Virus record (IMG/VR): IMGVR_UViG_3300050026_000055
Span: 32,281 to 96,280 of that record
DNA: 64,000 nucleotides
Strand: one strand, 5' to 3'
Origin: a virus
In this document: positions 21,270-64,000 of the stretch, piece after piece
Layout of the letters: each line of letters begins with the position of its first letter
Position numbering within the stretch: the first letter of the stretch is position 1
Position numbers and translations under genes: made by a program
Notes under the pieces: model-generated
What the model was told of the DNA's origin: nothing
Databases searched by the model: none
What the model saw: only the letters and a program-made list of their open reading frames with translations

Positions 21270-21856
21270 TTATTCAAATAGTCCAAAAATTTTTGAATAT
21301 ACTTCTTGTCATCTTCCAGCTTTCCTAACAACAGACTGCACTTGGCGCAAAGTATGCCCCTGTGAGTACCCGGTTTAGTATGGTCGTGGTCAATGTGCCA
21401 AGTATTGTTAAATCCTTGCCCCCAATCACACCCGCCGGTGCCACAAACAGCGCAACGGTTACTCTGGGAGGCCAACAGAGCGTCACGGCTGTCTTCATCC
21501 AGCCCATAAAGGATTCTATTCTGTCGATTCATTTTTCCTCTTGCTCGTAACTCTGGGTGTCTTTTGTTGTATTTTAAACCATCTATACGATTACATATCC
21601 GGCATCTCCTACCATTCTTTTTGCCATTTTTTGTAAATAACGGAATGATGTTGTTGCCGACTAATTCGTGACCGTGCTTACAAAATTGACGCGGAATGCC
21701 GCCAGTTTTCTTAATCTCAGGGTTTTTAATCCTATACGACTTCATTGCCGCGATTGCATGACATTGTTTACAGTAATATTTGTCGTTACCGTTGCGTTTA
21801 TACCGGTAAATATTTTCTTCAACCAATACATGACCTAAGTTACATAAGTTCTTCAT
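21257..21856 (-). CDS. endonuclease VII-like HNH endonuclease
   Basis: Q..RCAVC...HIDHDH...RGILCAKC. Confidence 0.8.
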   Translation of the reverse strand: MKNLCNLGHVLVEENIYRYKRNGNDKYYCKQCHAIAAMKSYRIKNPEIKKTGGIPRQFCKHGHELVGNNIIPLFTKNGKKNGRRCRICNRIDGLKYNKRHPELRARGKMNRQNRILYGLDEDSRDALLASQSNRCAVCGTGGCDWGQGFNNTWHIDHDHTKPGTHRGILCAKCSLLLGKLEDDKKYIQKFLDYLNKWET

Positions 21857-21870
21857 TCTAAACCGTTTAA

Positions 21871-22932
21871 TTAGAAGGGGCCATAAGGACGAGCGGGTGT
21901 TATCTGGTATCCGGCCCAACCAACGTCCATGATGGACTGACTGGGGTAGAATCCAAAATCATCCATCTCGCGCTGGCCTGATCTTAGCGAATTATCTAAT
22001 GCTTTTAACCATAATGCGTATTCTTCTTTAAACTTTGTTCTTACTTTAGGATCGGGACTTCTACGGAAGCATTGAGCATAAAATCCTTGCTTAAAAAATG
22101 TTACATAATCATCAGGAATGGGCTCAAGCGTCTGCGCTAAATTAAGAAATGTTGGTGCTCGCATCTGTGAGACTACGTTTATCATCCATACCACTCCTGT
22201 TTGCGGAGGCGTAGGATTGAGTCTAAATGCCTGACCCTTTGGGTTGATTGCAGTCCATACGCAAGAACCGTCTGCAACTGTAGTGGCAACTATGTGTTGA
22301 CTGTTAAATGTAGGATAGACCGGAGTGGTCGGCCATGTCGGTTGCACTGAACCACAGACACCAAACGTGGTCAAACACCAAAGATTACCATTAGGGTCTT
22401 TAATGCAAGTCGTTGGATTGTTTGGCTGTGTAATCTGATTAATCGGATTTATATATACAACACCGGGACCGGGATTAGTCAAACCAGAGTCACTCACTAA
22501 TGCAGTTTGTCCCCATGTTCCTGAAATAGCCTGATCGTTAGGAATCCAGCAAATCTTGTCTGGATAACCGGTTTGCGAATAAGTTACCAGAAGATCACGT
22601 CGAACTTCTAGATCGACCTTCTCTTTTGGAATTGAAGTGCTATTGATGTTCGATGCCCATGCGTACTCTAACCAAGAAACATTGACCACACCGGGTACAA
22701 AATAATCTTGCTGCAAGGTAATGGTAGTAAATGGAGTCACATTAAAGCGATTCCACTTCCAATTAAAAGGCTGGCCGTCTGGACCCCCGAACAGCATATC
22801 GGCCATAACATCATTTGCCACACTCAATGCTGGAAGATCGGAATAACCGCCTGTGGCTAAAGCCGGCGCTAGATCACCAAATGAGTTGGCATCGTCTACG
22901 ATTTGCTGCAATGGTATTGTACTGTTGGGCAC
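21871..22932 (-). CDS. head-tail adaptor-like protein
   Basis: PFNWKWNR and PIPDD motifs; paralog of 17311..18213; GTG start with AGGAG. Confidence 0.6.
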   Translation of the reverse strand: MPNSTIPLQQIVDDANSFGDLAPALATGGYSDLPALSVANDVMADMLFGGPDGQPFNWKWNRFNVTPFTTITLQQDYFVPGVVNVSWLEYAWASNINSTSIPKEKVDLEVRRDLLVTYSQTGYPDKICWIPNDQAISGTWGQTALVSDSGLTNPGPGVVYINPINQITQPNNPTTCIKDPNGNLWCLTTFGVCGSVQPTWPTTPVYPTFNSQHIVATTVADGSCVWTAINPKGQAFRLNPTPPQTGVVWMINVVSQMRAPTFLNLAQTLEPIPDDYVTFFKQGFYAQCFRRSPDPKVRTKFKEEYALWLKALDNSLRSGQREMDDFGFYPSQSIMDVGWAGYQITPARPYGPF

Positions 22933-22947
22933 ATTATCTCCTTAGAC

Positions 22948-22982
22948 ACAAAAAAAAGCAGGCCATGACATTAATCATGGCC
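22948..22982 (-). terminator. intrinsic terminator
   Basis: GGCCATGA/TCATGGCC hairpin followed by T-tract on the minus strand. Confidence 0.7.
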
Positions 22983-22988
22983 GAATAA

Positions 22989-23570
22989 TTACCGCAAGTT
23001 CACGTCAGCCATTTTCAAACGAGCATCGTCGCCTCCGTCACTATATCTGTATTGAATACTGCCGCTCGTAACATTTCTAGTCTGGAACTGAAGTGCGGTT
23101 TGATAATCGGAAACTGCTTTATTAAAGGACGCTTCATTAAACTTGCCGTTAGGAACAACCACGCCCTTTTCGTTGAACATAAACTGTTCTTTAATGGGCG
23201 GTTTCCAAGTCTGACCACAACGCAGACAGCGAACCCAGGTGTCTCCCCAAGGCATGATATGCTTCAGCACGCAGAACTGAGAGTCATCTCCCTGTCCACC
23301 TATAATGCCTTCAGCGCCATTGCCACCCTTTTTGTGGTTGCAGCGAGCCTGAGTTGCCTCGAATCCGCGCTTAATCTGTGCAAGAGTCTGTCCATTTGTA
23401 GTACTACGCTGACGTTTATTGTCGCGCTTTAATTCTCGTTCTTGAAGACGCTCTTCCAAATCCTGAAGTTCTGCCTTCTTTGCTTTGATTTCAAGCTGTT
23501 TTAGTTCTAACTCAGCTTTCTTCATTTCTGCATCACTAGGTTCTACAATTTTCATAAGATTTTCTGCCAT
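22989..23570 (-). CDS. hypothetical protein, coiled coil plus Zn-binding motif
   Basis: CNH...CLRC; GGAG RBS. Confidence 0.6.
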   Translation of the reverse strand: MAENLMKIVEPSDAEMKKAELELKQLEIKAKKAELQDLEERLQERELKRDNKRQRSTTNGQTLAQIKRGFEATQARCNHKKGGNGAEGIIGGQGDDSQFCVLKHIMPWGDTWVRCLRCGQTWKPPIKEQFMFNEKGVVVPNGKFNEASFNKAVSDYQTALQFQTRNVTSGSIQYRYSDGGDDARLKMADVNLR

Positions 23571-23581
23571 TTCCTTCTCCT

Positions 23582-24232
23582 TTAAACAGCCGTTACCATT
23601 TTATTCCGCGCTTCATAAAACAATGAATTGTATTTAAAAGCTGCTGGACCTGTGGCTTTACCGAATACTCTTTCGATGACCGCCTCAGAAAGAAATCCTT
23701 TCAGCAGTATTTGCATCAAACAAGTACGCCATCCTCGATATTTTTCATTCAAAGGAATGCCGCGCTCATCGAACCGCATTATGGTAAACTCAGTCGTATA
23801 TCCGTTTTGTACCCAACATGCCACTTCGGGGTACGCATTTTTGTCTTTGCGTTGTACAAGAAGTGTTAATTTATCTGGATGTGGATGTTGACGATACCAG
23901 CAATTCAAGTTGCACTCTTCTCGCAGTTTTTTGATAAACTCGCTAGAGTGCATAACCTTGCCTTTTCTAGCCTCTTCATCGGCATAATCAGCAGGATCAA
24001 GCCAGCGATAATCTTTAACCACTTCGGCTGTCAATTCTTGCTGTCTACACAATTCTTCTTCATTTTGCTGGCTGCTGTGTTCGTGAACATGTTCAGCATA
24101 TCGCTCAATCTCACCTTCTAATTGTGGATCAAGTTTCTCCTCAAAACTGGCAGCATATGTTTCCCAAGGAGGCGCATCTTGCTTGCGAGTGCCTTGGTTT
24201 TTCATCATCTCTTGATACTGTTCTTGTTCCAT
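23582..24232 (-). CDS. hypothetical protein
   Basis: GGAGG RBS before ATG at 24232 (MEQEQY). Confidence 0.65.
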   Translation of the reverse strand: MEQEQYQEMMKNQGTRKQDAPPWETYAASFEEKLDPQLEGEIERYAEHVHEHSSQQNEEELCRQQELTAEVVKDYRWLDPADYADEEARKGKVMHSSEFIKKLREECNLNCWYRQHPHPDKLTLLVQRKDKNAYPEVACWVQNGYTTEFTIMRFDERGIPLNEKYRGWRTCLMQILLKGFLSEAVIERVFGKATGPAAFKYNSLFYEARNKMVTAV

Positions 24233-24530
24233 TTTCCTCCAAAAATCTACCACACCGCCGAAGGCAATCACTCTCGGCGGGGGCAGTGCCACAACTCGGC
24301 TGGCCTGCCTGACAGTGTGGCAAAAGACTGTTGCATTTACTTTGGTATAAATAGTAATCCAACTATTGATACCATTCAATACAGCAGACAAAAAATTTAT
24401 TAATTTTTTCTTGACAAAACACCGGTGCCTATACTATTTTATACAACCTCGTTACCTGCCTAAAACCAGTTCCCCACCCATTTGCCCCCGGTGATGTAGT
24501 TGGAAATCGTGGTGCTGTTAACGACAGTCC

Positions 24531-25316
24531 CTACCTAAACACGCCCTTGCCAACCCCGTAGAGCACCGTACCGCCAGAACCGCCACCTGAATAACTCAGC
24601 GCGTGCATCGCATTTCCCAGTGCCGTGCGGGCCGACTGCAAGCCCGTTCCACTGGTTTCAAACGTGTAGGAGTTTGTGATCCAACTTGAAATTTGCGCTG
24701 AGACCAAAGAGCTTTTTCCGTTGTTCTTCAAGACATTCAGATATTCGTAATCCTGTACTCCGTCGCGGATTAACTTGAGACGCACACTGGGAAGAATGAG
24801 CGGCGTGGTTACACCGGAGCCCATGTAACACACTGCACTGCTATTACTGCTGCCTACGCACCCTGGATAAACGAGTGTTCCATCACCCCAACCGCCAGAA
24901 TAGTAAATCCCATTCCAGGGGTTCCACGTCACGCCAGACGGGACGCAATAGGGGTTGTAAGAAGGAGTGTTGCAGACATCAGCAGCATAGTAGAGTTCGC
25001 CCGTTTGTCCGTGCAAATAGGTTAGCCACTCCATCGCGCGGGCCGCTGCTGGTTTGCCATCGACGTTATAGTTCGGCCATGTGGTGTATGTGTATCCTGA
25101 CGGACTAGGACCAGGTACTCCATTCGAACAGGTTCCGGCTTCTGAACACGATTGATAAGACCACTCGGTGCCAGTAAGGGCGCAGGCTGATGGGCAGCCG
25201 TTTGATGTGGGAGCGGTCGCTGTTACCGTTTGCGCCGGAAGGCTGCTGACGTTTTTCTGCGCCTGAGCGACACACGAGATAAGTAAAAGAAGCGAGATTG
25301 CTAAAATCTTTTTCAT
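24531..25316 (-). CDS. signal-peptide protein with DUF4091/GH123-like C-terminal domain
   Basis: MKKILAISLLLLISCVAQA signal; GDGTLVYPG and PSVRLKLIRDGVQDYEYL motifs. Confidence 0.7.
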   Translation of the reverse strand: MKKILAISLLLLISCVAQAQKNVSSLPAQTVTATAPTSNGCPSACALTGTEWSYQSCSEAGTCSNGVPGPSPSGYTYTTWPNYNVDGKPAAARAMEWLTYLHGQTGELYYAADVCNTPSYNPYCVPSGVTWNPWNGIYYSGGWGDGTLVYPGCVGSSNSSAVCYMGSGVTTPLILPSVRLKLIRDGVQDYEYLNVLKNNGKSSLVSAQISSWITNSYTFETSGTGLQSARTALGNAMHALSYSGGGSGGTVLYGVGKGVFR

Positions 25317-42017: not shown

Positions 42018-42446
42018 TTATTTTTCTCCAAACTCTTCTTTTTCGGCTAGTCGCCTTCGTAACAATCCGGCCACAACTATACCGCCAGCTTTGTCCCACT
42101 TTTCAAACTCGTTGACCGCATCTAACAAATCATTTTTGTTTATCAGAATAAGTAACGTTGAGTGCTCAAAATTTCCTGTGCCACAATTAAACACAAAATC
42201 AACACAAGCGTCAAATTCTGGTTGTGTGAGTTGTATCTTGACCAATAGGTTTACTCGTCTAGATGCCCACTGAATATCTTCAGCCAACCACAGACCGGCC
42301 TGTTCAAGTGTGCAAGTCATTCCTAAATATACTCCTGCTGTATGACCATAACCGATGGTAGGAATTCCATTTGAATCCAAGTAGGCGACTAATCTACATC
42401 CTTCAAACTGTTCAGTAAGAACCAACCCTTTATTGCTGTATGTCAT
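42018..42446 (-). CDS. lysozyme (GH24 endolysin)
   Basis: FEGCRLVAYLDSNGIPTIGYGHT; GLLRRRLAE. Confidence 0.9.
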   Translation of the reverse strand: MTYSNKGLVLTEQFEGCRLVAYLDSNGIPTIGYGHTAGVYLGMTCTLEQAGLWLAEDIQWASRRVNLLVKIQLTQPEFDACVDFVFNCGTGNFEHSTLLILINKNDLLDAVNEFEKWDKAGGIVVAGLLRRRLAEKEEFGEK

Positions 42447-42963
42447 TGGCAGTAGCATTCTTGTACCTCAATTTTGCGTACTTCATTTTAGTGTATTGCT
42501 CAACGCCTTGGCCGGGATCATATTTAGGATATAGTGCCTTCATAACTTTTTCGGCATTCCTAAATACATCGTTTCTAAACTCTCCTATTGTTTCCAAATA
42601 CAAGAGAGTAACACTTGGCCCTCTACTGTGCCCTTGATTGCACGCAACTAAGACATTGTTTCCATCTGCCAGTTTCTTGCCTATAAACTCAAGTGCGTGA
42701 TCGATACCGTCATCCGGCATAAAATGCGGATCATCTAAATCTAAAATATTTATAGCTAGAATGTTACCTTTGATGACGTACTGATAATGCGAATCTTTTG
42801 GGGCGCCTACTGTCTTGTAACCTAGTAATGCTCTGTGTCCACCCGGACCTTCCTTACAGCACCTTACGAAACTAAATCCAGACTTGTCTTCAGTCTTTGT
42901 AAAATCGTTGTCATCTCCTATGTACAGTTTGCCTCCACTCGGATGTACATAAATCTCAGTCAT
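42430..42963 (-). CDS. dual-specificity (CX5R) phosphatase
   Basis: LYIG, LDLDD, VLVACNQGHSRG P-loop. Confidence 0.8.
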   Translation of the reverse strand: MTEIYVHPSGGKLYIGDDNDFTKTEDKSGFSFVRCCKEGPGGHRALLGYKTVGAPKDSHYQYVIKGNILAINILDLDDPHFMPDDGIDHALEFIGKKLADGNNVLVACNQGHSRGPSVTLLYLETIGEFRNDVFRNAEKVMKALYPKYDPGQGVEQYTKMKYAKLRYKNATANDIQQ

Positions 42964-50709: not shown

Positions 50710-50738
50710 TTGACAAGATGGCTTTTGGAGAGTATAAT
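50710..50738 (+). promoter_or_regulatory. sigma70-type promoter (near-leaderless)
   Basis: TTGACA-17-TATAAT, 8 nt before ATG 50747. Confidence 0.8.
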
Positions 50739-50746
50739 AGGAAAAT

Positions 50747-51013
50747 ATGGCAAAAGAAACAGAAGTTAAGAAAGCAAAGACATTAGAACCGACAGAGACG
50801 GAACAGATGAGGCTGGAAAACCTACAGTTGAGAGCACTTTTGTTCCAGACACGCGGAGTTAACGCACAAAAAGAAGTTGAATCGCAGAACCAAAACTTTC
50901 AGGCTGCTGTTAAAGCGCTGAATGAGTATGGGCAAGAAGTAATTAAGGCTCACGATTGTAACTCTGAAGATGTTAACTTTGATGCTAATACATTAAAGTT
51001 CACTTGCAAGTAA
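50747..51013 (+). CDS. hypothetical coiled-coil protein
   Basis: ORF directly after promoter. Confidence 0.6.
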   Translation: MAKETEVKKAKTLEPTETEQMRLENLQLRALLFQTRGVNAQKEVESQNQNFQAAVKALNEYGQEVIKAHDCNSEDVNFDANTLKFTCK

Positions 51014-51603: not shown

Positions 51604-52071
51604 ATGAAACAGGTTCACCTTGGTAATGGCATGTCGGCATTAGTTGATAATACCGACTACGATAACATACGCACATATTCGTGGCACGCCGTTAAGTATC
51701 CAAAGCGTAATACGTGGTATGCGGTCACTGCTATTGGGGGCAAGACTGTTCAAATGCATCGGCTTATTTTAGGTTTATGTGCCGATGATCCACAAGTTGA
51801 CCATGCCAATTGTTACGGCCTAGACAATCAGAGACACAACATTAGGATAGCAACTGGGTCGCAAAATGCGATGAATCGACCTCCCAAACAGGGTCGCAGG
51901 TTCAAAGGCATCTACAAAACAACTACTGGTAAATGGGCCGCAAAAATTCAAACTCCGGGTAACGAACAGCATTATCTCGGTGTATGTACTTTACCAGAAG
52001 ACGCAGCGCGGCTTTATGATGCTGCGGCAATGATATATTTTGGAGAGTTTGCATATCTGAACTTTCCTTAA
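51604..52071 (+). CDS. HNH-AP2 homing endonuclease
   Basis: MHRLIL...VDHAN..GLDNQRHNIR; FKGI...WAAKI...AARLYD.AA...FGEFAYLNF. Confidence 0.85.
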   Translation: MKQVHLGNGMSALVDNTDYDNIRTYSWHAVKYPKRNTWYAVTAIGGKTVQMHRLILGLCADDPQVDHANCYGLDNQRHNIRIATGSQNAMNRPPKQGRRFKGIYKTTTGKWAAKIQTPGNEQHYLGVCTLPEDAARLYDAAAMIYFGEFAYLNFP

Positions 52072-52353
52072 CGAGAACGCATGTCAACCATTTAATGCAG
52101 TATAATCGGACCCGGTTAGCATATACCGGCAGGTCCACCATACTAATACATACTTCATAAATGTTGTTGTTTTAATTTGGGCCTGACAAGATTCGACGGT
52201 TGTATCTTGGTTAAGTGTTCGTGCAACGGAAGTATGTCCCGTTTAATAAATACATATAAACTAAAAAACGCCAATGAGGAAACTCTGGCTATGGAAGCCG
52301 CCGCGTAAGTTGCGGTTTTCGGGGTCTGGCCCACCTAGCAACAGAACGGGCCA
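52070..52353 (+). ncRNA. ssrA: permuted two-piece tmRNA: acceptor piece ~52070-52140, coding piece 52179-~52353
   Basis: 3' end CAGGTCC-A-CCA at 52140 precedes 5' end GGGCCTGACAAGATTCGAC at 52179; acceptor stem has G3.U70; tag ANEETLAMEAAA* at 52270-52308. Confidence 0.88.
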
Positions 52354-52374
52354 ATTATTTTTTATAGAGGATAA

Positions 52375-54767: not shown

Positions 54768-55208
54768 ATGATGTTTACTGAAAAGTGGGACAAACGATTT
54801 TTGGAAATGGCAACACTGGTGTCTACTTGGTCTAAAGACCCTAGTACTCAGTGCGGAGCAGCTATTGTGCGGCCCGATAAAACTGTGGTATCAGTCGGCT
54901 TTAATGGATTTCCAAAGCAGATGCCAGATAGTCCTTCATGGTATGATAACCGAGAAGATAAGTATTCTCGCATTGTCCATTGTGAAATGAACGCGGTGTT
55001 GCACGCATATGAAAAGTTAGAAGGGTGCGTGTTATATACAACCGGGCCGTGTTGTGATAGGTGTGCGGTGCATATGATTCAAGCAGGCATTACGCATTTT
55101 GTTGCCTATACTGCTCCTGAAATGTGGGAGCGATGGGGCGAAGCGTTTGCTAAAACATTTAGGTATTATGACGAATGTGGCGTAACACACAAAGAGTACA
55201 GCAAATAA
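54768..55208 (+). CDS. dCMP deaminase
   Basis: WSKDPSTQCGA, GFNGFP, HCEMNA, PCCDRC. Confidence 0.9.
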   Translation: MMFTEKWDKRFLEMATLVSTWSKDPSTQCGAAIVRPDKTVVSVGFNGFPKQMPDSPSWYDNREDKYSRIVHCEMNAVLHAYEKLEGCVLYTTGPCCDRCAVHMIQAGITHFVAYTAPEMWERWGEAFAKTFRYYDECGVTHKEYSK

Positions 55209-55222
55209 TCGAGGATAATTAT

Positions 55223-55765
55223 ATGAAGGTATGGCTCTACACTGATAGTCACTTTTTTCACGACAAGATGGTGGAGTTTTGTGGCCGTCCGGTTGACCAT
55301 ACTGAACGTCAGGTGGCGAACTGGAAGCGTCTAGTTGCGCCAGAGGATTTAGTTTTTCATTTGGGAGACGTTGCACTTGGAGTAGGCGGTAGAATGCGGG
55401 AGCTACAGGCACTACTCCAAGGTCTGCCGGGTAAGAAGGTTCTTATACTTGGAAACCACGATAAGCAGAGTCCTACTTGGTATATGCGTAACGGATTCGA
55501 TGCGGCAGTAACCAGCATAGTTTATAAAAGAGTGTTCTTGACTCATAAACCTGCCGATAGATTGCCGCCCGGTGCATGGCTGAACGTTCATGGACATCTA
55601 CATAACTCACCGCACCATAAATGGGAGCACATAGAGAAGCCGTGGCATAGACTGCTTCATATCGAAGATCGTTTAGAGCCTGTTGAATTTGACAAGTTCG
55701 TTAATGCTGATCTTAGTCGTGAGCAGATACGAAGAGACATGGTTAAGAGACTTAACTATGTGTAG
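55223..55765 (+). CDS. metallophosphoesterase
   Basis: DSHFFH, HLGD, GNHD, THKP, HGHLH. Confidence 0.85.
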   Translation: MKVWLYTDSHFFHDKMVEFCGRPVDHTERQVANWKRLVAPEDLVFHLGDVALGVGGRMRELQALLQGLPGKKVLILGNHDKQSPTWYMRNGFDAAVTSIVYKRVFLTHKPADRLPPGAWLNVHGHLHNSPHHKWEHIEKPWHRLLHIEDRLEPVEFDKFVNADLSREQIRRDMVKRLNYV

Positions 55766-55919
55766 AGTAAAGACTTGTTTTTGGTGTGAACATGAAGACA
55801 AGTTTCCGATAGAATGGGATGCCACACCGATGTATGGGGGCGTGTGGCATCGCATTGATGAAGTCACTGTTGTTGCGTGCAGTGGAAAGGAGAGTTACCA
55901 TTCCTATCAGGGAGTTTAA
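55758..55919 (+). CDS. small hypothetical protein
   Basis: MCRVKTCFWC; overlaps both neighbours. Confidence 0.4.
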   Translation: MCRVKTCFWCEHEDKFPIEWDATPMYGGVWHRIDEVTVVACSGKESYHSYQGV

Positions 55920-56103
55920 ATGCATAATGGGACATGTTACTGAAGAAATTCTTTTTGGACAACTTGATGAGGTACAGACAGTTGTGCTATGTCCTAGATG
56001 CGGAGAATTTGCCAAACGGCAAGATGTATCACGGCCCGGTGCTCCAATTTTAAAAGAGGGTAACGGGGGATTCTATAAGCCTAGTAGAGAGGAACGAAAA
56101 TGA
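55900..56103 (+). CDS. FmdB-like zinc ribbon protein, probable ATT start
   Basis: (M)PIREFKC..GH...CPRCG...GGFYK; AAGGAG 7 nt before in-frame ATT. Confidence 0.7.
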   Translation: MPIREFKCIMGHVTEEILFGQLDEVQTVVLCPRCGEFAKRQDVSRPGAPILKEGNGGFYKPSREERK

Positions 56104-56750
56104 AAGTCTGTTGTATTTCCGATACGCACGGTCAGCACCGGTGTAAATCTATGGCTATTCCTAAATGTGATCTGTTGATTCATGCAGGTGACATTGCCGG
56201 CAAGGGTTCATTTGCAGTTATACGCGATTTCAATGATTGGATCGGTGAACTGAAGTCTAGTAATGTTGTAGGAGAAGCAGTCGTTATTCCGGGCAACCAC
56301 GACTTGTCTCTTGATCCAGTTAAGGTAGGCAGGCCATGCAACGATGCAATAAGTTTGTTTACGAACTGTGAGTTGTTGATAGATGCAGGAATAGAGTTGA
56401 ATGGCATAAAGATTTGGGGCAGTCCGTATACGCCAGCGTTTATGGATTGGGCATTTAACAAGAAGCGCGGGCAAGAGTTGAGAGAACAGTGGGAGAAGAT
56501 TCCAGAGAATCTTGACATTCTAATTACGCACGGACCGCCGTATGGAATTCAAGATAAAGCAATGGTTCAGCATTTAGGAGATATAGAATTGTATGATGCA
56601 ATTGTTACAAAGTCGCCTAGAGTGCATATCTTTGGACACATTCACGGCGGTTACGGCATAGCGGTTGGCTTTGGAACGCTGTTCGTAAACGCATCACTGC
56701 TGGATGAAGATTATCATATCGCCAACCAGCCAATAGTATTTACGATCTAA
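56100..56750 (+). CDS. metallophosphoesterase
   Basis: ISDTHG, HAGD, GNHD, THGPP, FGHIH. Confidence 0.9.
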   Translation: MKVCCISDTHGQHRCKSMAIPKCDLLIHAGDIAGKGSFAVIRDFNDWIGELKSSNVVGEAVVIPGNHDLSLDPVKVGRPCNDAISLFTNCELLIDAGIELNGIKIWGSPYTPAFMDWAFNKKRGQELREQWEKIPENLDILITHGPPYGIQDKAMVQHLGDIELYDAIVTKSPRVHIFGHIHGGYGIAVGFGTLFVNASLLDEDYHIANQPIVFTI

Positions 56751-57468: not shown

Positions 57469-57813
57469 ATGAAAAATGGAGACTATAATTTAATAATAGC
57501 GCCGATAGATTATCCCGGCAAACGGTATCGTGGTCGTTATGCATATGAACACATCGTTGAATTTTGGAAAACCACAGGAAGACTGCCTATTCCGGGGCAT
57601 ATAATTCATCACGACAATGAGAATAAACGAGACAATGTTTTTTGTAATCTTAAAGAGATACAAAATGGTGTACACACAAGTATGCACCATTTGCCATCAA
57701 CCGCTGAACATGGAACTGCAACGCGGTATCGGCGCGGTTGCCGCTGCATAGATTGTAGAGTAGCAAAAACAGAGTCACAAAAACGGTGGCGTAACAGAAA
57801 AAGGACAGCCTAA
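57469..57813 (+). CDS. HNH endonuclease
   Basis: YAYEHIV...IIHHDNENKRDN...NL...H; HGTATRY...CRCIDC. Confidence 0.8.
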   Translation: MKNGDYNLIIAPIDYPGKRYRGRYAYEHIVEFWKTTGRLPIPGHIIHHDNENKRDNVFCNLKEIQNGVHTSMHHLPSTAEHGTATRYRRGCRCIDCRVAKTESQKRWRNRKRTA

Positions 57814-57837
57814 AAAGCTGTCCTCTTTTTTTTGTCT
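57799..57837. terminator. bidirectional intrinsic terminator
   Basis: AGGACAGC/GCTGTCCT hairpin with T-tract between convergent genes. Confidence 0.8.
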
Positions 57838-58039: not shown

Positions 58040-58235
58040 ATTCCTCCTTGATGTAACTCTGACAGCGTAATTCTCTTCCACACATCCGCTCGTAAAAATA
58101 CGCATCAAATTTCGGGATAAAGACTATTCTTGTACTATCAGGCGGCGGCGACTCTTCCCACGGTCCAAATAGCGAGTAGAAATAAGATACCGGACGGTTG
58201 GATAGCCTTAGCTTAATTCTTGTCTTTTGTCTCAT
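58026..58235 (-). CDS. hypothetical protein
   Basis: Translationally coupled (ATGA overlap). Confidence 0.45.
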   Translation of the reverse strand: MRQKTRIKLRLSNRPVSYFYSLFGPWEESPPPDSTRIVFIPKFDAYFYERMCGRELRCQSYIKEEYEDS

Positions 58236-58447: not shown

Positions 58448-58476
58448 ATAATAACACACCAGAGGCATACTGTCAA
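58448..58476 (-). promoter_or_regulatory. sigma70-type promoter (leaderless)
   Basis: TTGACA-17-TATTAT with extended TG, 6 nt before ATG. Confidence 0.75.
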
Positions 58477-58664
58477 GATAAAAAGAAGCGATTTGCGAAG
58501 CTAGAGCATAAGATAATGTACACCATATAGAGTAGGGTTAAGAATCAGACCACAATAGATAATAGTGTATAGCGTACCAAAAATTTTAAAAAATATAGGG
58601 CACCTATCTCATACAAAACAAAAAGAAAAGAGACACGCAGAAGTATATAGAAACCTAAATCTGA

Positions 58665-58698
58665 AACGTCACGGAACGTCACGGAACGTCACGGAACG
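58665..58698. repeat. 10-bp tandem repeat AACGTCACGG, about 3.4 copies
   Basis: Direct reading. Confidence 0.9.
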
Positions 58699-59015
58699 GC
58701 GTGAGGCCGGGTAAGCATAGGCTGGCGTGCGAGACGGCGTGGGGCGCTCTGGCGCCCGGTAAGGCAAACACTTTAGGTACTACTAACGCCATTAGAATCA
58801 TATAGATACAGACCAAACTTATACATCTATAAGCTGTGCTTATGGCCGCGAATAACTGGGTCGATCTGGTTTAAACTTGGCGCGATTCGCCCGCCCCGTA
58901 ATTCTCTGGTAACATTGGAGTTACCCGTACTATACATTATAGTGTAGTGTATAGCCAACAGCTCACGTCCGCCCCCGTCCGTCTCATTTTGAGAATGGCA
59001 GCAAAATTGCCGGGC

Positions 59016-59290
59016 TTGCGGGTCGCTTCGTTCGTCTCTGTTCTTGTGTCGTGCTGGTTGCGGGTCGCTTCGTTCGTTCGTGTGTCGTGTCTGCTGGCTG
59101 GCTGCAGGTCGCTTCGTTCGTCTCTGGTTCGTCTCTGGTTCGTGTCTGGTTCGTGTCTGATCTGGTCTGATCTGGTTCGAGTGTATACGGTACACTCAGC
59201 TTTCTGGCGTCTCTGATCTGTTCGTCTCTGGTCTGTCTGTCTGTCTCATTCTATTTTGTTCGTCTCTCATTCTGTCTCTGTTCTGTTTCA
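59016..59290. repeat. A-poor degenerate repeat tract
   Basis: TGC(G/A)GGTCGCTTCGTTCGT at 59016, 59058 and 59102, then GTTCGTCTCTG/TCTG units. Confidence 0.8.
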
Positions 59291-59430
59291 GATGACTAGC
59301 ACTTTCGTCTTATTAACTATTAGTAACTATCTGTTCAAGACTAGTAATTAATCATACACTCCACAGTTTGAACGCATATAACAATGATAAAATCGGACGT
59401 TAAAATCTGCTCGTTATTATCACTGCTATC

Positions 59431-59473
59431 TGTGATCAGCATCACAGAATTACGGCACGTTATACGCTAGTCT
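59431..59473 (+). promoter_or_regulatory. CRP-box class II promoter
   Basis: TGTGA-TCAGCA-TCACA, 21 nt, then TAGTCT. Confidence 0.7.
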
Positions 59474-59518
59474 AACCAAGTCGTAAGCACAGAATATACT
59501 AGTTACTAGGGAGATAAC

Positions 59519-59701
59519 ATGCAAAATCGTGATACGGAATCTATTGAATTTTGGGCCATGATAGGCTCAAGTCTATCTGTACCTCACATATTGGCCGATG
59601 CGTCAATCGTTCTGCCCGCGCCCACAATAGTTCGGACGATTCAACCCGTAGCTAAGGGCAACGGTTTACTGTCACTCGAAGTATTCAAAAGGAGTGTATG
59701 A
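59519..59701 (+). CDS. hypothetical protein
   Basis: GGAG RBS. Confidence 0.45.
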   Translation: MQNRDTESIEFWAMIGSSLSVPHILADASIVLPAPTIVRTIQPVAKGNGLLSLEVFKRSV

Positions 59702-59928
59702 CAATGTTACATTTACTTTTTCTTGGTTTCATGTTCGGCTTATTAATTCGTGCATGTTATGTCGTCTACTATGCTGGTTGGGGAGCAGCGCGCAAAGAGT
59801 GCAAAGAATTGAAAGCAAAAAGGCTGCAAGAAGCAAACTGTTCAATAGGCAAGCATGATTATGCTTATGGCTTAATGGTGTGCTCTTGCAGACACAAATG
59901 GGGCGTGCCTAATGACTCGAATCTGTAG
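59698..59928 (+). CDS. small membrane protein
   Basis: AAGGAG RBS; N-terminal TM helix. Confidence 0.55.
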   Translation: MTMLHLLFLGFMFGLLIRACYVVYYAGWGAARKECKELKAKRLQEANCSIGKHDYAYGLMVCSCRHKWGVPNDSNL

Positions 59929-60109
59929 CACTTGCAAAATTGAACTTGGCGAAAAATGCGAAAAATGTGGCGTTAAAATCACTGCGACTTGGGCAGAGGG
60001 CGAGGGCGCTTTTGTCTGTACTTGTGGGCACACGTTTGATAAGGGTTCGGGCGGAATCTCTCATGGCTATTGTAGCCCGTGTCTTGAAGTATTCAAAAGG
60101 AGTGTATGA
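59912..60109 (+). CDS. small Zn-finger-like protein
   Basis: CSTC, CEKC, CTC and SHGYCSPC. Confidence 0.6.
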   Translation: MTRICSTCKIELGEKCEKCGVKITATWAEGEGAFVCTCGHTFDKGSGGISHGYCSPCLEVFKRSV

Positions 60110-60234
60110 CAATGCCTAACGATATGCTTGGTAAAATCGTTTTCGTTTCACTGTTTTTGTTCTTGCAGTGTTTGTTAGCTTATGGTGTCGGGCGTCTAAT
60201 TATGTTTTTGTTCTGTATGCTCACAAAAGCATAA
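60106..60234 (+). CDS. 42-aa hydrophobic peptide (absent from ORF track)
   Basis: AAGGAG RBS; MTMPNDMLGKIVFVSLFLFLQCLLAYGVGRLIMFLFCMLTKA. Confidence 0.5.
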   Translation: MTMPNDMLGKIVFVSLFLFLQCLLAYGVGRLIMFLFCMLTKA

Positions 60235-60245
60235 TCACCATGGTC

Positions 60246-60288
60246 TGTGACCAGTATCACAGAACTATATTGCTCGGAAGTCTAATCT
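60246..60288 (+). promoter_or_regulatory. CRP-box class II promoter
   Basis: TGTGA-CCAGTA-TCACA, 21 nt, then TAATCT. Confidence 0.7.
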
Positions 60289-60309: not shown

Positions 60310-62307
60310 ATGACCATTGCGACACAAGGCGTGGAATACGGTCTTGAGCCGTTATATCGCACGCAAAAAGCAAAAGGAATTAAGGCACTTAAAGACTCAG
60401 GGTTTAAAGTCCCCGAGTTTGCAGTGTACGAGATAGAACAGTTTGTGGAATCTAACTTGGGGTTCGGAAAATTATCGCCTGATGTTTTGATTGGGCGATT
60501 CGTGCGCCCGTGCCCTATGGTTCCGCGTCATGGTTTTGTAGACTCTCGCCCAATCCGTAACACGCAAGAAGCCGAACAGATAATTGCAGAGACGTATGCC
60601 GTAGAACACGAAGCCGAACTAGTTTCAATGCCAGTAGTCAACGCGGACTATAGTGCGATTTTTACTAATGGCAAGCTAATCGTTGGGCCTAATAACGATG
60701 GCGCAACGGCGGGTATCGGGAGTAGAGTTATTCCGACTATTGGAAAGCCCCACTTGCACGATTATAAATGGTCAGAAGCCTGCGAACGGGCGGGAATAAC
60801 AGAGGAACCTTTTGCTGAGTTACTGTGGAATAAAATCAGCTCTGAAGAATACTATTGCTCCTTCGTTCAATTACGGAATGGGCCCAAAGTCCCCGATGTA
60901 CGCGACTTTATACCCGCTGAAACAGTAGTCAAAAAGATAGTGCAATGCATTACTGCGGAAATTGACGGCAAACCCGCCGTAGTCGACGAAAACGGCGTGC
61001 TAATTGACTTGGTAGCATGGGAGACTACTGTAAAGACGTTCACCCCCGGGACTGTAGTCTATTTTCCGGGCGGAACACTAGCTGCGCATATTGGGATCCA
61101 TTGTTTTTTGTCCAATGTACCTGTAGTCACTACGTTCAAACCAGAAGTCGGGCAAACCTTGAAACAATTGGAAGCAAAACCAGAGCAAAGTATTGATAAA
61201 ATCAAGGCGGGCTTTGTGCTGGGATGTAATGCTAAAATCAGCTATAAGGTAGCTTGTTATGCAATGTTAGCGGGCTGCCATAGTATTACAGCATGGTCCG
61301 GGCGACAGGATGTACTGTTAGGCTTTGCGCTGGGTTGCTGTTATCGGCTGCTAATCACTGCGGGCTTGGGGGAATATCGCCATTCGCCAAAGAGAGAGAG
61401 GGCGCGAAAACCTCACAGAGACTCAGTATACTCTCACTGCTGGAATAAAATACTTGCTCAAACCACGCGCGCAAAATACTGCAAAAGTATTGACTCATTT
61501 GCAAATGAGCCATGGGGCGCGTCTTTTGGCGGGAAAAATTGGCTGCTACTTACAGGCTATGCGGGGTTAATCTTCAATAGCCTGCTAGATGGCAGTATAA
61601 AATCAGCTTTGGAAAATTTAAATCTTGCAGTAAACTGTTCGCATAATGGCGGGTGGGGCTTCAATAAATTCGTGTCGGAAGCTACCATGAGCGAAGCCGC
61701 AGAGTCGCCCGCCGCAATGTTACTTAGATGCGCCCCAGAGCTATACCAAGCTATTCTGGCGGACGAAGGCAACCCAAAGCTGGCTTCGTGGTTTGTAAAG
61801 CGTAAACACTACGATCTGTCAGAATTAGATGGCATCGAAAACAAGTCATTCAAGTCGGAAGAATTAGACGAATCTTGCAACTGCGGCGAATGTAATTGCG
61901 GCGAATGTAATCCAGATGGGGACTGCGGAAATTCTGACTGCGATTATTGCTATCCCGATCACGACAGTGAGCCGAAAACCAGCAAAACAAAATTAACTAG
62001 TGGGCCGATAGTTTCAGCTCAAGTAAAAATCGTAGAAAATAACGACAATACACTGCTGGCGCATATACAGTACAGACAGCAGACAATGGCTTCCGGATTG
62101 TCGCATCTTACTAAAAATATCACTGTTTCGGGTGGTGAGGTTTACCTGTTAAAGCAGATTGCAAGCAAAACAAGTGCAAGTAAACTAAGCCATACAGGGA
62201 GCAAAACAGAATACTTCCCACTAGTGCATAGTGGTAACTCTAGCTACTGGGTGCTCGGGGAATTGGGAATCCATGGGTTCTATTTTAAATTGCTAGTCAA
62301 CGAATAA
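60310..62307 (+). CDS. divergent PEP-synthase/PPDK-like phosphotransferase (ATP-grasp + phospho-His swivel + unknown C-terminal domain)
   Basis: QKAKGIKALKDSGFKVPEFAV, FVRPCP and VQLRNGP resemble the PPDK ATP-grasp; GGTLAAHIGIHC...VPVV resembles the swivel His motif. Confidence 0.6.
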   Translation: MTIATQGVEYGLEPLYRTQKAKGIKALKDSGFKVPEFAVYEIEQFVESNLGFGKLSPDVLIGRFVRPCPMVPRHGFVDSRPIRNTQEAEQIIAETYAVEHEAELVSMPVVNADYSAIFTNGKLIVGPNNDGATAGIGSRVIPTIGKPHLHDYKWSEACERAGITEEPFAELLWNKISSEEYYCSFVQLRNGPKVPDVRDFIPAETVVKKIVQCITAEIDGKPAVVDENGVLIDLVAWETTVKTFTPGTVVYFPGGTLAAHIGIHCFLSNVPVVTTFKPEVGQTLKQLEAKPEQSIDKIKAGFVLGCNAKISYKVACYAMLAGCHSITAWSGRQDVLLGFALGCCYRLLITAGLGEYRHSPKRERARKPHRDSVYSHCWNKILAQTTRAKYCKSIDSFANEPWGASFGGKNWLLLTGYAGLIFNSLLDGSIKSALENLNLAVNCSHNGGWGFNKFVSEATMSEAAESPAAMLLRCAPELYQAILADEGNPKLASWFVKRKHYDLSELDGIENKSFKSEELDESCNCGECNCGECNPDGDCGNSDCDYCYPDHDSEPKTSKTKLTSGPIVSAQVKIVENNDNTLLAHIQYRQQTMASGLSHLTKNITVSGGEVYLLKQIASKTSASKLSHTGSKTEYFPLVHSGNSSYWVLGELGIHGFYFKLLVNE

Positions 62308-62357
62308 CTGCTAATCGGAAAACGTAGTCAAAATTTAAACAAAAGGAAAACAAGAAA

Positions 62358-63380
62358 ATGAGCAAAAACAAAAAAAGTAAGAGTAAGCCGATTAGCACCC
62401 CAGAATTGCAGAACTTAGTTCTGGAAAGTTCCTCTGTGTCTAATCCAGTGAACGTTTCAAAATTCGATATTGAGCATATAACAGGAATTACGGGTACCTG
62501 GCAAGATGCGCTTTGTGTGTGTCCCTGGTGCAATGGGGATCAGTTTGTTTACGCTTTTGAAGACCACCAAACATTTTACTGTGCAGAATGTAGTGAAGAA
62601 TTTTCTAAAGATGATTGTGACGATTATATGTCCGAAAAAGCGATTGATACCTCGGGAGTAACTCCAAACCAGTACTTGTCTGAAGAGATAGCAGAAGTTA
62701 AAAAGGCATCGGAAGCCGCTTACCAGCGGGGTATAGATGCTGCACAAGACTTGAATAAACAGACACAAGGTAATACATCACAGATACAGCGCGATATCGA
62801 CTTGTCTATTGGAATAACTGGAAAGCAAAAGTCTTTCGATAATTGGAAACCCCAGTTAAAATGCTGCCATGCACCCCAGCAGTTAATAGCAGGTAAGGGC
62901 TGGGGAGTTTGGGCGGGAACAAAAAGCGATTGTTTAGACTCTGCAAGGAATTATGATGTAGTTATGAATCTTACATTTTCCAGTATTAAAGAAAATCACA
63001 GCATCCCAATTCCTGAATTGCAAAAATGGGAGAATTATTCTAGTCCATTTATAGAACTGCAAATGGATTGGCCCGACTACGGTGTTATTGGATTACCGCG
63101 TGCCTTTTGGGAAGATCTAATTACCTACTTGGAACGAAATCATGCAAAGTTGTTAGTGTTTTGCCAGGGTGGGCACGGGCGAACGGGTGCGGCAATCGCT
63201 TGCCTTATGGTAACAGGATTAGGCTATACTGCAAAACAAGCCATAGCATGGATTAGGAAAAATTATTGTGCATCGGCCATAGAGTCTACCTCACAAGAAA
63301 ATTACATTCGCAAAATTGCACGCAAAAGCCGTAAACAAGACGAACCGGAAGTCAAGGCATACGAAGCCGAAAGCAATTAA
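62358..63380 (+). CDS. protein-tyrosine/dual-specificity phosphatase with N-terminal zinc ribbon
   Basis: DWPDYG loop, VFCQGGHGRTG P-loop, IESTSQ loop; CPWC...CAEC. Confidence 0.85.
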   Translation: MSKNKKSKSKPISTPELQNLVLESSSVSNPVNVSKFDIEHITGITGTWQDALCVCPWCNGDQFVYAFEDHQTFYCAECSEEFSKDDCDDYMSEKAIDTSGVTPNQYLSEEIAEVKKASEAAYQRGIDAAQDLNKQTQGNTSQIQRDIDLSIGITGKQKSFDNWKPQLKCCHAPQQLIAGKGWGVWAGTKSDCLDSARNYDVVMNLTFSSIKENHSIPIPELQKWENYSSPFIELQMDWPDYGVIGLPRAFWEDLITYLERNHAKLLVFCQGGHGRTGAAIACLMVTGLGYTAKQAIAWIRKNYCASAIESTSQENYIRKIARKSRKQDEPEVKAYEAESN

Positions 63381-63455
63381 ACAATCGCTGTAATGGTCTG
63401 CAATTGAGATAGTGGGCCATTACAGCATTATAGCCGAACACGAAAGGACAAGAAA

Positions 63456-63731
63456 ATGACTAACTGCAAACCTAATCCAGTTTATTCAATGTATACAGCA
63501 AAAGACTACAGAGACGAACCCATGTATTCACTGTATGCTGATTCAATTGACTTCGAGCAGATGTTAAAAAGACAGAACGAACACGGAAACCTATCTAACG
63601 GGTATTGGGCTGCATGGTTTGCTGCTCGTCGTACGGCTGAGTCTCTCTTAAATGAGGCCAGAGCTATTGGCTGTACTCCAGAGCAATTGGAAGCCTTGAG
63701 AGTAGTTGCTGCCCGAGTTGCGACAGATTAA
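63456..63731 (+). CDS. hypothetical protein
   Basis: AAGGA RBS. Confidence 0.55.
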   Translation: MTNCKPNPVYSMYTAKDYRDEPMYSLYADSIDFEQMLKRQNEHGNLSNGYWAAWFAARRTAESLLNEARAIGCTPEQLEALRVVAARVATD

Positions 63732-63923: not shown

Positions 63924-64000
63924 GCCAGCGGTGAGCCAGCACGCCGTCCGATGGCCAGCGGTGAGCCAGCACGCCGTCCGATGGCCAGCGGTGAGCCAGC
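63924..64000. repeat. 30-bp GC-rich tandem repeat, runs off window
   Basis: GCCAGCGGTGAGCCAGCACGCCGTCCGATG, about 2.6 copies. Confidence 0.9.

Follow-up and report, generated by a model that had tools for sequence, protein, structure and literature searches.

Two CRP-type boxes and the gene groups behind them

The DNA analysed in this work, hereafter the window, comprises the last 64 kb (64,000 nucleotides) of the 96,280-bp genome of a tailed phage (IMG/VR record IMGVR_UViG_3300050026_000055), and our subject is a pair of perfect CRP-type palindromes within it, both intergenic and each situated ahead of its own gene group. The core of box 1, TGTGA-N6-TCACA, is found without mismatch at positions 59431-59446 (TGTGATCAGCATCACA) and that of box 2 at positions 60246-60261 (TGTGACCAGTATCACA), with 815 bp between the sites. 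Both read CTGTGA-N6-TCACAGAA, and the inverted repeat extends over 7+7 bp (TCTGTGA-N6-TCACAGA, 59429..59448 and 60244..60263) and is followed by an A. In detail, the half-sites are TGTGAT/ATCACA and TGTGAC/ATCACA with a G directly after TCACA, and 6 nucleotides (nt) ahead of each box a half-site-like element can be read on the plus strand, TCACT at 59420..59424 and TCACC at 60235..60239. Each box is proposed to be the site of a dimeric host protein of the CRP/FNR family.

Box 1 precedes a putative transcription unit of four small open reading frames (ORFs; 59519..60234, +) with 60 (59519-59701, +), 76 (59698-59928, +), 65 (59912-60109, +, cysteine-rich) and 42 codons for amino acids (60106-60234, +, hydrophobic product), for which no Pfam or PHROG families were found above threshold. 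The putative unit behind box 2 (60310..63731, +) consists of three ORFs that encode a 665-aa protein (60310-62307, +), a 340-aa protein with a DSP/PTP phosphatase domain (PTP-SAK/DSPc; 62358-63380, +) and a 91-aa protein (63456-63731, +). A preliminary description of this DNA, prepared from the sequence without database searches, had spoken of a kinase/phosphatase pair, of which the phosphatase is confirmed and the kinase is not. The 665-aa protein has no match in Pfam, PHROG or, in a profile search of its family, among PDB sequences. Its AlphaFold model (pLDDT 82.8) carries an N-terminal ATP-grasp fold, and Foldseek aligns it with D-Ala-D-Ala ligase, RimK and synapsin (probability 1.00, about 190 columns). 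In view of this fold 'ATP-using enzyme' is a fair designation for the protein, and 'kinase' is unproven.

The same description had reported two perfect boxes, a -10 hexamer exactly 21 nt behind each core and the lack of a TTGACA -35 element; in all these points it proved accurate. In 100 dinucleotide-preserving shuffles of the window TGTGA-N6-TCACA occurred 0.09 times on average and two or more times in none (0/100). Throughout the 96,280-bp genome the two boxes are the only exact matches, and a single further site with one mismatch lies within a coding region. The hexamers TAGTCT (59468-59473, +) and TAATCT (60283-60288, +) follow TCACA of box 1 and box 2, respectively, after exactly 21 nt and are the proposed -10 elements, with predicted starts near 59479-59481 and 60295; TAATCT ends 21 nt ahead of the ATG. 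Since TAnnnT fills 1.8% of the genome positions, its presence at offset 21 behind both boxes has a chance probability of about 3e-4. Hexamers located 16-18 nt upstream of either -10 element agree with TTGACA in at most two of six positions, whereas TTGACA-16/18-TATAAT, allowing two mismatches, is matched 40 times elsewhere in the genome. About 25 of these matches are intergenic and have the form cTTGACAaaa-17-TAtAAT, close to the TTGACA-17-TATAAT consensus. Most promoters of the phage are of the strong constitutive kind. A relaxed search for boxes (up to two mismatches, TAnnnT at offset 21-22) yielded one further place, which is not promoter-like and was discarded, and neither half-sites nor AGTCTA-type words are enriched. 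The position of -41.5 that had been assigned to the boxes holds as arithmetic for the predicted starts: it is the box centre provided that the start falls 7 nt past the -10 hexamer.

The best reading of this arrangement, to which we give slightly more than an even chance, is that a host activator of the CRP/FNR family acts on both boxes. A dimeric host factor would bind each box, occupy the place of the -35 element, centred some 41.5 bp ahead of the predicted start, and recruit host sigma-70 RNA polymerase to the weak TAnnnT -10 element, as in class II activation. The two phage units, one with the four small ORFs and the other with the ATP-grasp enzyme and the DSP-type phosphatase, would then fire only while the host regulator is active. 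Binding, activation, start sites, host and signal are all points that we infer. The preliminary description had derived gating by a host CRP/FNR-family regulator from the class II position; this claim is supported by comparison only, namely with regard to the conserved arms, the lack of a corresponding phage protein and the geometry of bacterial sites.

Conservation of the boxes

The two sites share a unit of 37 nt (59416-59452 and 60231-60267) with 76% identity, and none of the nine differences between the copies falls on the 14 arm positions (hypergeometric p 0.0066). By this measure, the box arms are under constraint. A metagenome contig (L003) that encodes a 97%-identical homolog of the 665-aa protein keeps box 2 with a single change, which is located in the spacer. 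Its similarity to the phage begins about 15 nt upstream of box 2, and the DNA farther upstream is unrelated. It has TCACT at the position of TCACC, 6 nt upstream of the box, and its -10 element reads TACCTT as compared to TAATCT, the three changes all affecting the non-critical positions 3-5. Among 109 homolog loci (984 kb) a box ahead of the 665-aa homolog is present in L003 only; two other exact boxes sit elsewhere and not upstream of the homolog, and in relatives at 47% identity or less the box was not found. In one 47%-identical relative (L004), TTGACA-17-TACATT ends 20 nt before the ATG of the homolog. As a sigma-70 promoter is found there, a promoter belongs at this spot, and the lineage studied here has swapped the -35 element for the box. 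No close relative of the 665-aa protein was found in viral contigs; one with 69% identity (P0001) is encoded on a 31.6-kb contig. The extended 20-nt box pattern is absent from the viral contigs searched. In four DNA sequencing runs covering the region the boxes and their flanks are invariant and represent one uniform population, and this lack of variation therefore provides no information on constraint.

These data bear on two alternatives that dispense with a DNA-binding regulator. The boxes could be the relic of a local promoter-cassette duplication, devoid of any regulatory role and similar to CRP sites by chance. This is very improbable: the 37 nt common to both sites and other local duplications nearby, e.g. 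59652-59706 and 60060-60114, would fit such an origin, but the differences spare the arms without exception (9/9), an exact ten-base consensus is expected only 0.09 times per window, and the box has been kept in L003 despite unrelated upstream DNA. Alternatively, the repeats could act as RNA, with a stem of 7 bp and a loop of 6 nt forming a hairpin that aids processing or stability of the transcript, either in its leader or between cistrons. The arms are able to pair, and box 2, lying between two co-oriented gene groups, is possibly transcribed from upstream. On the other hand, no T-run follows either site, a terminator scan was empty at both, no Rfam match was obtained at E values up to 1, and a fixed TAnnnT spacing and a third half-site would be meaningless for a hairpin. 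The copies differ in the loop and never show compensating changes in the stem, so that pairing is neither supported nor tested by them. We consider a function as RNA extremely improbable.

The same promoter type in Terriglobia genomes

In a set of 151 genomes from the class of the Acidobacteriales metagenome-assembled genome (MAG) G007, the Terriglobia, 593 boxes were counted compared to 159 reversed controls (3.7-fold), and six or more boxes are present in 38/151 genomes as opposed to 2/151 for the reversed control; the tallies include the unpublished genome G083, the omission of which shifts the sums by 7 and 1. Geometry was evaluated for 59 non-redundant exact sites from five genomes, after removal of those too close to the end of a locus (all 44 from G102 and G116, all seven of G007, four of six from G059 and four of six from G051). 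On the 118 oriented half-sites of this sample TAnnnT is found 12 times at offset 21 and 13 times at offset 22, with a background of about one per other offset (p 1e-20 for the peak at 21-22). Class II-like spacing (21-22 nt) is thereby realised in 25/59 bacterial sites, two of the 25 being copies of an IS200-like element that are not independent. The outer spacer positions are Y..R in 111/118 bacterial half-sites, and in 16/25 class II-like sites the base next to TCACA, on the side of the promoter, is a G. A TCACA-like element (at most one mismatch) is located 6-7 nt upstream of TGTGA in 10/25 class II-like sites and in 16/68 other half-sites (enrichment p ~1e-11). The phage boxes exhibit the Y..R spacer, the G flank and the upstream element, at a gap of 6 nt, alike. 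Terriglobia genomes appear to use the same box in class II geometry.

The genes behind the class II-like sites encode cytochrome bd subunit I (two, in two genomes), Usp (four), c-type or cbb3-type cytochromes (three), IS200-like transposases (two), a CBS protein, a P-type ATPase, acetyl-CoA hydrolase, citrate synthase, alanine dehydrogenase/PNT, a HipA-like kinase, a 23S-IVP protein and six family-less ORFs. The IS200-like transposase genes (L123 and L126, from G116 and G102) lie behind the same box with class II spacing; other mobile elements in these bacteria therefore use the promoter type of the regulator.

A candidate regulator and the signal it may sense

An island of 53 kb in G007 (G007:C11:122000-175000, L174-L176) contains six boxes and the gene for P0241, a CRP/FNR-family protein of 229 aa (cNMP_binding, HTH_Crp_2, Crp). 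Around P0241 seven tandem-Usp genes are found as well as genes for hemerythrin, alcohol dehydrogenase, acetate kinase, phosphoketolase, multihaem cytochromes and NorB. The boxes of such islands have the form TGTGAY-N4-RTCACA. Homologs of P0241 are encoded in 54/151 genomes (E ≤1e-20). Genomes with a homolog have a median of six boxes (at least six in 32/54), those without it a median of one (at least six in 6/97), and boxes adjoin the regulator gene in several genomes. The association of regulator and boxes has an odds ratio of 22 (p 1e-12, uncorrected for phylogeny). That the value is uncorrected counts against our reading, as do the six box-rich genomes without a P0241 match; ten genomes have such a match yet contain two boxes or fewer.

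In an alignment of 17 P0241 homologs an N-terminal C-x2-C-x8-C motif plus a further cysteine is invariant, and the same is true for a helix with the sequence T(S/T)RETVxR. Among proteins of solved structure, E. coli CAP, mycobacterial CRP, Vfr and GlxR come closest, and the FNR structure 5cvr aligns with P0241 over residues 4-227. By analogy with E. coli CRP we take the RE..R helix to specify TGTGA, and the invariant N-terminal cysteines presumably hold an iron-sulfur (Fe-S) cluster as in E. coli FNR. The Terriglobia regulator combines a CRP-type recognition helix with FNR-like N-terminal cysteines. A description of this low-oxygen acidobacterial regulon was not found in a full-text literature search that did not cover subscription journals.

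The preliminary description had proposed host carbon or cyclic-nucleotide state as the signal. We do not follow it in this respect, because the co-occurring regulator has FNR-like cysteines and its gene has those for cytochrome bd, Usp, cytochrome c and NorB as neighbours. Provided that the host belongs to the Terriglobia and possesses a P0241-type regulator, oxygen, nitric oxide (NO) or redox state, perceived via an FNR-like sensor, is more likely to be the signal than cyclic AMP (cAMP), although a cAMP-binding regulator is conceivable. A more specific proposal, which is tentative and to which we assign a probability well below one half, states that the phage reads the oxygen or redox state of its host and that its first two rightward promoters are switched on by an Fe-S regulator of the FNR-like type from an acidobacterial host. 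This regulator would normally turn on the islands for cytochrome bd, Usp and NorB at low oxygen via CRP-type boxes. The ATP-grasp enzyme, the phosphatase and the four small proteins would be made only in hypoxic cells, as in waterlogged peat, and a class II promoter of the host would have been copied in place of the ordinary sigma-70 promoter of the relatives. The infection programme of the phage would then include a hypoxia-gated branch.

Search for a regulator encoded by the phage

The boxes could instead be operators for a dimeric DNA-binding protein of an unrecognised family that is encoded by the phage itself and serves either as a MotA-like activator or as a timing repressor. About two thirds of the phage ORFs are without any family, private palindromes are frequent among phage regulators, the two sites are the only ones and neighbours in one region, and a regulator-operator pair predicts the very absence of the box from the more distant relatives that was noted above. 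Nevertheless, we judge this explanation unlikely. Neither a CRP/FNR or cNMP-binding protein nor a recognisable helix-turn-helix (HTH) protein or another DNA-binding family emerged from Pfam analysis of the 161 phage ORFs, and six-frame searches of the phage with HTH_Crp_2 and with P0241 were empty; the family control for these searches was positive in 14/14 genomes. A CI/Cro-like repressor/operator module was not apparent either, as the searches gave no recognisable HTH protein and the two sites lie 815 bp apart, each ahead of its own gene group. Moreover, the box agrees exactly with the consensus of a regulator family that is widespread in bacteria, and a private operator has no reason to copy the spacing of 21 nt, the Y/R rule, the G flank and the third half-site of bacterial sites. 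A regulator of the CRP/FNR type is not encoded by the phage, while one of an unrecognised fold is conceivable.

The probable host

The likeliest host class is the Terriglobia (Acidobacteriota), an assignment to which we give roughly even odds. According to their DNA polymerases, the nearest isolates are Tunturi_3 and Tunturi_4 (42-43% identity), which are phages of Tunturiibacter (Acidobacteriota; PMC11924767). The runs that contain the region are labelled peat metagenomes. Cellular homologs of the 665-aa protein in reference genomes stem from two Acidobacteriales MAGs and one Chloroflexi MAG, and a named match in the protein search is Acidicapsa ligni. Of the box data, only the finer features (Y/R rule, G flank and third half-site) favour Terriglobia, the one class in which they were examined. 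Homologs of the phage RecA were discarded as host indicators since the best 120 matches are all metagenome proteins.

A permuted transfer-messenger RNA (tmRNA) of the alpha type could be taken to indicate an alphaproteobacterial host. This candidate was rejected because Tunturi_3 and the relative G001 carry the same kind of tmRNA, which is therefore no host marker. The two-piece tmRNA of the phage is located at window positions 52027-52355 (+) and scores 59.9 bits with the Rfam model alpha_tmRNA and 62 bits with tmRNA_permuted; ARAGORN did not report it. The copies in the relatives are found at 88172-88396 in Tunturi_3 (W01) and at G001:C1:7493-7769. In the text of the Tunturi paper (PMC11924767) the word 'tmRNA' does not occur.

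Observations that weigh against activation

A number of observations weigh against activation by a host regulator, and some of them concern the host. With 42-43% the G+C content of the phage is low for Acidobacteriota hosts, and the sampled site neighbourhoods of Terriglobia have 54%. A Chloroflexi class is enriched in boxes too, with 223 boxes compared to 39 controls (summed by hand) and at least six boxes in 10/66 genomes, a tally that includes the unpublished genome G203. CRP-type boxes are widespread, and box enrichment therefore does not identify the host and was abandoned for this purpose. No RNA run is among those listed for the region. Furthermore, a paralogous origin of the two sites is possible, and they would then not be independent. 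L003 is the only relative in which conservation can be assessed, and its sequence breaks off shortly before reaching box 1. In none of five related phage records (62-109 kb) does the box occur, and the feature is therefore young or lineage-specific.

Other observations of this kind concern the promoters themselves. The proposed -10 hexamers match TATAAT in only three of six positions. Better hexamers, each with five of six matches, lie 10 nt upstream of each TGTGA, with exactly 8 nt between hexamer and extended arm (TATTAT, 59415-59420; CATAAT, 60230-60235), and a sigma-70-like site with 9 of 12 matches is present at 59378-59406. If the upstream hexamers or the latter site are the promoters, the boxes are located at or after the start. 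A host protein of the CRP/FNR family would then bind as a repressor or roadblock to boxes at about +2 to +21. Such a mode of action has a precedent in phage T1, whose pir, dam and recE promoters are reported to be repressed by host cAMP-CRP (PMC6737242). In the case presented here repression is quite unlikely. Neither of the upstream hexamers has a -35 element or a TGn extension, and in L003 the upstream hexamer reads TCTAAT, the critical A at position 2 being lost, whereas the downstream TAnnnT is kept. In addition, the bacterial sites show no TAnnnT peak upstream of the box (0/118 at gap 10, where the repressor model needs it) in contrast to the sharp peak at the class II position.

Comparison with known systems

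The galP1 and melR promoters of E. coli are class II CRP-dependent promoters. As in these, TGTGA-N6-TCACA overlaps the -35 position in the phage with its predicted centre at -41.5, and the phage sites have the 21-nt spacing, no -35 and a weak -10 element. They differ in their flanks, which are A/T-rich in the E. coli CRP consensus and TC/GA in the phage, and in the extra TCAC half-site 6 nt upstream; furthermore, they belong to a phage from peat, and the likely regulator is not enterobacterial cAMP-CRP. FNR, an oxygen sensor that acts at class II promoters, recognises TTGAT-N4-ATCAA by means of a helix of the type E--SR. The candidate regulator family resembles FNR oxygen sensors in its N-terminal cysteines and in its islands of low-oxygen genes (cytochrome bd, Usp, cytochromes and NorB), whereas its helix, RETVxR, and its DNA box are both of the CRP type, and binding of an Fe-S cluster is a matter of inference. 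In middle promoters of phage T4 a MotA box replaces the -35 element. The peat phage promoters would likewise be sigma-70 promoters that keep the -10 element and carry an activator box in place of -35. MotA is encoded by the phage and its box is asymmetric; in contrast, the box described here is palindromic and fits a regulator family of the host, and the searches of the phage gave no activator.

The common view of phages is that their early programme relies either on constitutive promoters of the host type or on factors of their own. Class II CRP/FNR promoters as such are already known, and so is the action of host CRP on phage T1 promoters (PMC6737242). As in T1, a host global regulator of the CRP family would act directly on phage promoters and tie development to the state of the host, which in the present case is a prediction. 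CRP in T1 represses, jointly with phage Pir, as part of a lysogeny-lysis switch (PMC6737242), while the peat phage exhibits activation geometry and neither a phage regulator nor a lysogeny module is evident. In Mycobacterium smegmatis, Crp1 is reported to activate cydAB (PMC7739888), a case of cytochrome bd being driven by a CRP-type box and regulator under respiratory stress. Similarly, Terriglobia boxes precede the gene for cytochrome bd subunit I in two genomes. Crp1 differs in that it binds cAMP and in that no phage is involved, whereas the Terriglobia proteins carry FNR-like cysteines.

What appears to be new is the activation geometry in a phage with otherwise constitutive promoters, copied from an acidobacterial-type regulon. 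In a full-text literature search, again not covering subscription journals, no class II CRP/FNR-activated phage promoter was found, the nearest case being repression by CRP in T1. If our reading is true, the phage conditions part of its programme on host physiology, probably on oxygen limitation in peat, without a regulator of its own. Together, the predicted regulator, its box and its regulon would make gene regulation accessible to tests in the Acidobacteriota, a phylum abundant in soil, with the phage promoters as compact reporters provided by nature.

Genomic surroundings and further features of the phage

The phage encodes an SU10-like portal and adaptor, terminase, DNA polymerase A, a primase-helicase, RecA and a class II ribonucleotide reductase, and it contains many HNH/EndoVII genes. 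A phage RNA polymerase was not found among its ORFs, and a search with the DNA of the region against 50,697 phage records gave no match. Upstream of the boxes a strong intrinsic terminator (57802..57824, +; 8-bp stem with five GC pairs, then a T-run) closes the preceding plus-strand operon, and a near-consensus leftward promoter at 58476 drives three small minus-strand ORFs. The interval between this promoter and box 1 is occupied by a non-coding repeat field (58500..59400; repeat families D1, D3, D5 and D7), beyond which boxes 1 and 2, in this order, mark the first plus-strand promoter candidates. It is plausible that the genes behind the boxes are early ones, because the plus-strand genes continue into a stretch at the contig start that is dense with strong promoters and small ORFs.

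Within the repeat field (58500-59350) a 10-nt unit is present three times at 58665-58698 and a 42-44-nt unit three times at 59017-59140, and 11-nt GTTCGTCTCTG units are located at 59116-59159. The field has no match in Rfam and may be an origin or packaging region. The 13-mer TCTCATTTTGAGA is found at 58230 and 58982 and recurs 172 nt from the contig end of the relative G001, which is a weak hint that it points to the physical genome ends. The label 'direct terminal repeats' attached to G000 and G001 was rejected as evidence for such ends, since in G000 it falls on a tandem repeat located where the contig begins and ends. The labelled sequence is a 30-nt G+C-rich tandem repeat (~70% G+C versus 42% for the genome) that spans the contig-end junction (L001 1-78 and window ~63925-64000).

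Among the strongest sigma-70 promoters there are many with a distance of only 6-10 nt to an ATG, e.g. those at 58476-58439 (-), 50710-50750 (+) and 46331-46295 (-), and the respective mRNAs would therefore have no leader or hardly any. In the case of the leftward promoter at 58476, the start is placed at the ATG of 58441 and not at the start of the longest ORF at 58468. The repeats at 59652-59706 and 60060-60114 (family D2) constitute a duplicated gene-junction cassette linking unrelated small ORFs. It comprises the last codons (LEVFKRSV) with the stop codon, a Shine-Dalgarno sequence and the beginning of the following gene, which overlaps, and a diverged copy is present in L003, which suggests shuffling of modules at a fixed junction.

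The 996-aa primase-helicase (L002 5610-8600, genome positions 21610-24600) carries LAGLIDADG and Hom_end domains in the middle of the protein, suggestive of an intein, and more than 12 genes for HNH, EndoVII and LAGLIDADG endonucleases are present in the genome. Finally, the phage encodes a stand-alone response-regulator receiver domain of 132 aa (L001 5176-5574), a PP2C phosphatase (L002 15151-16014) and, in the window, two further phosphatases of the DSP and metallophosphatase types (42430-42963 and 55175-56750). Such a load of signalling and phosphatase genes is unusual.

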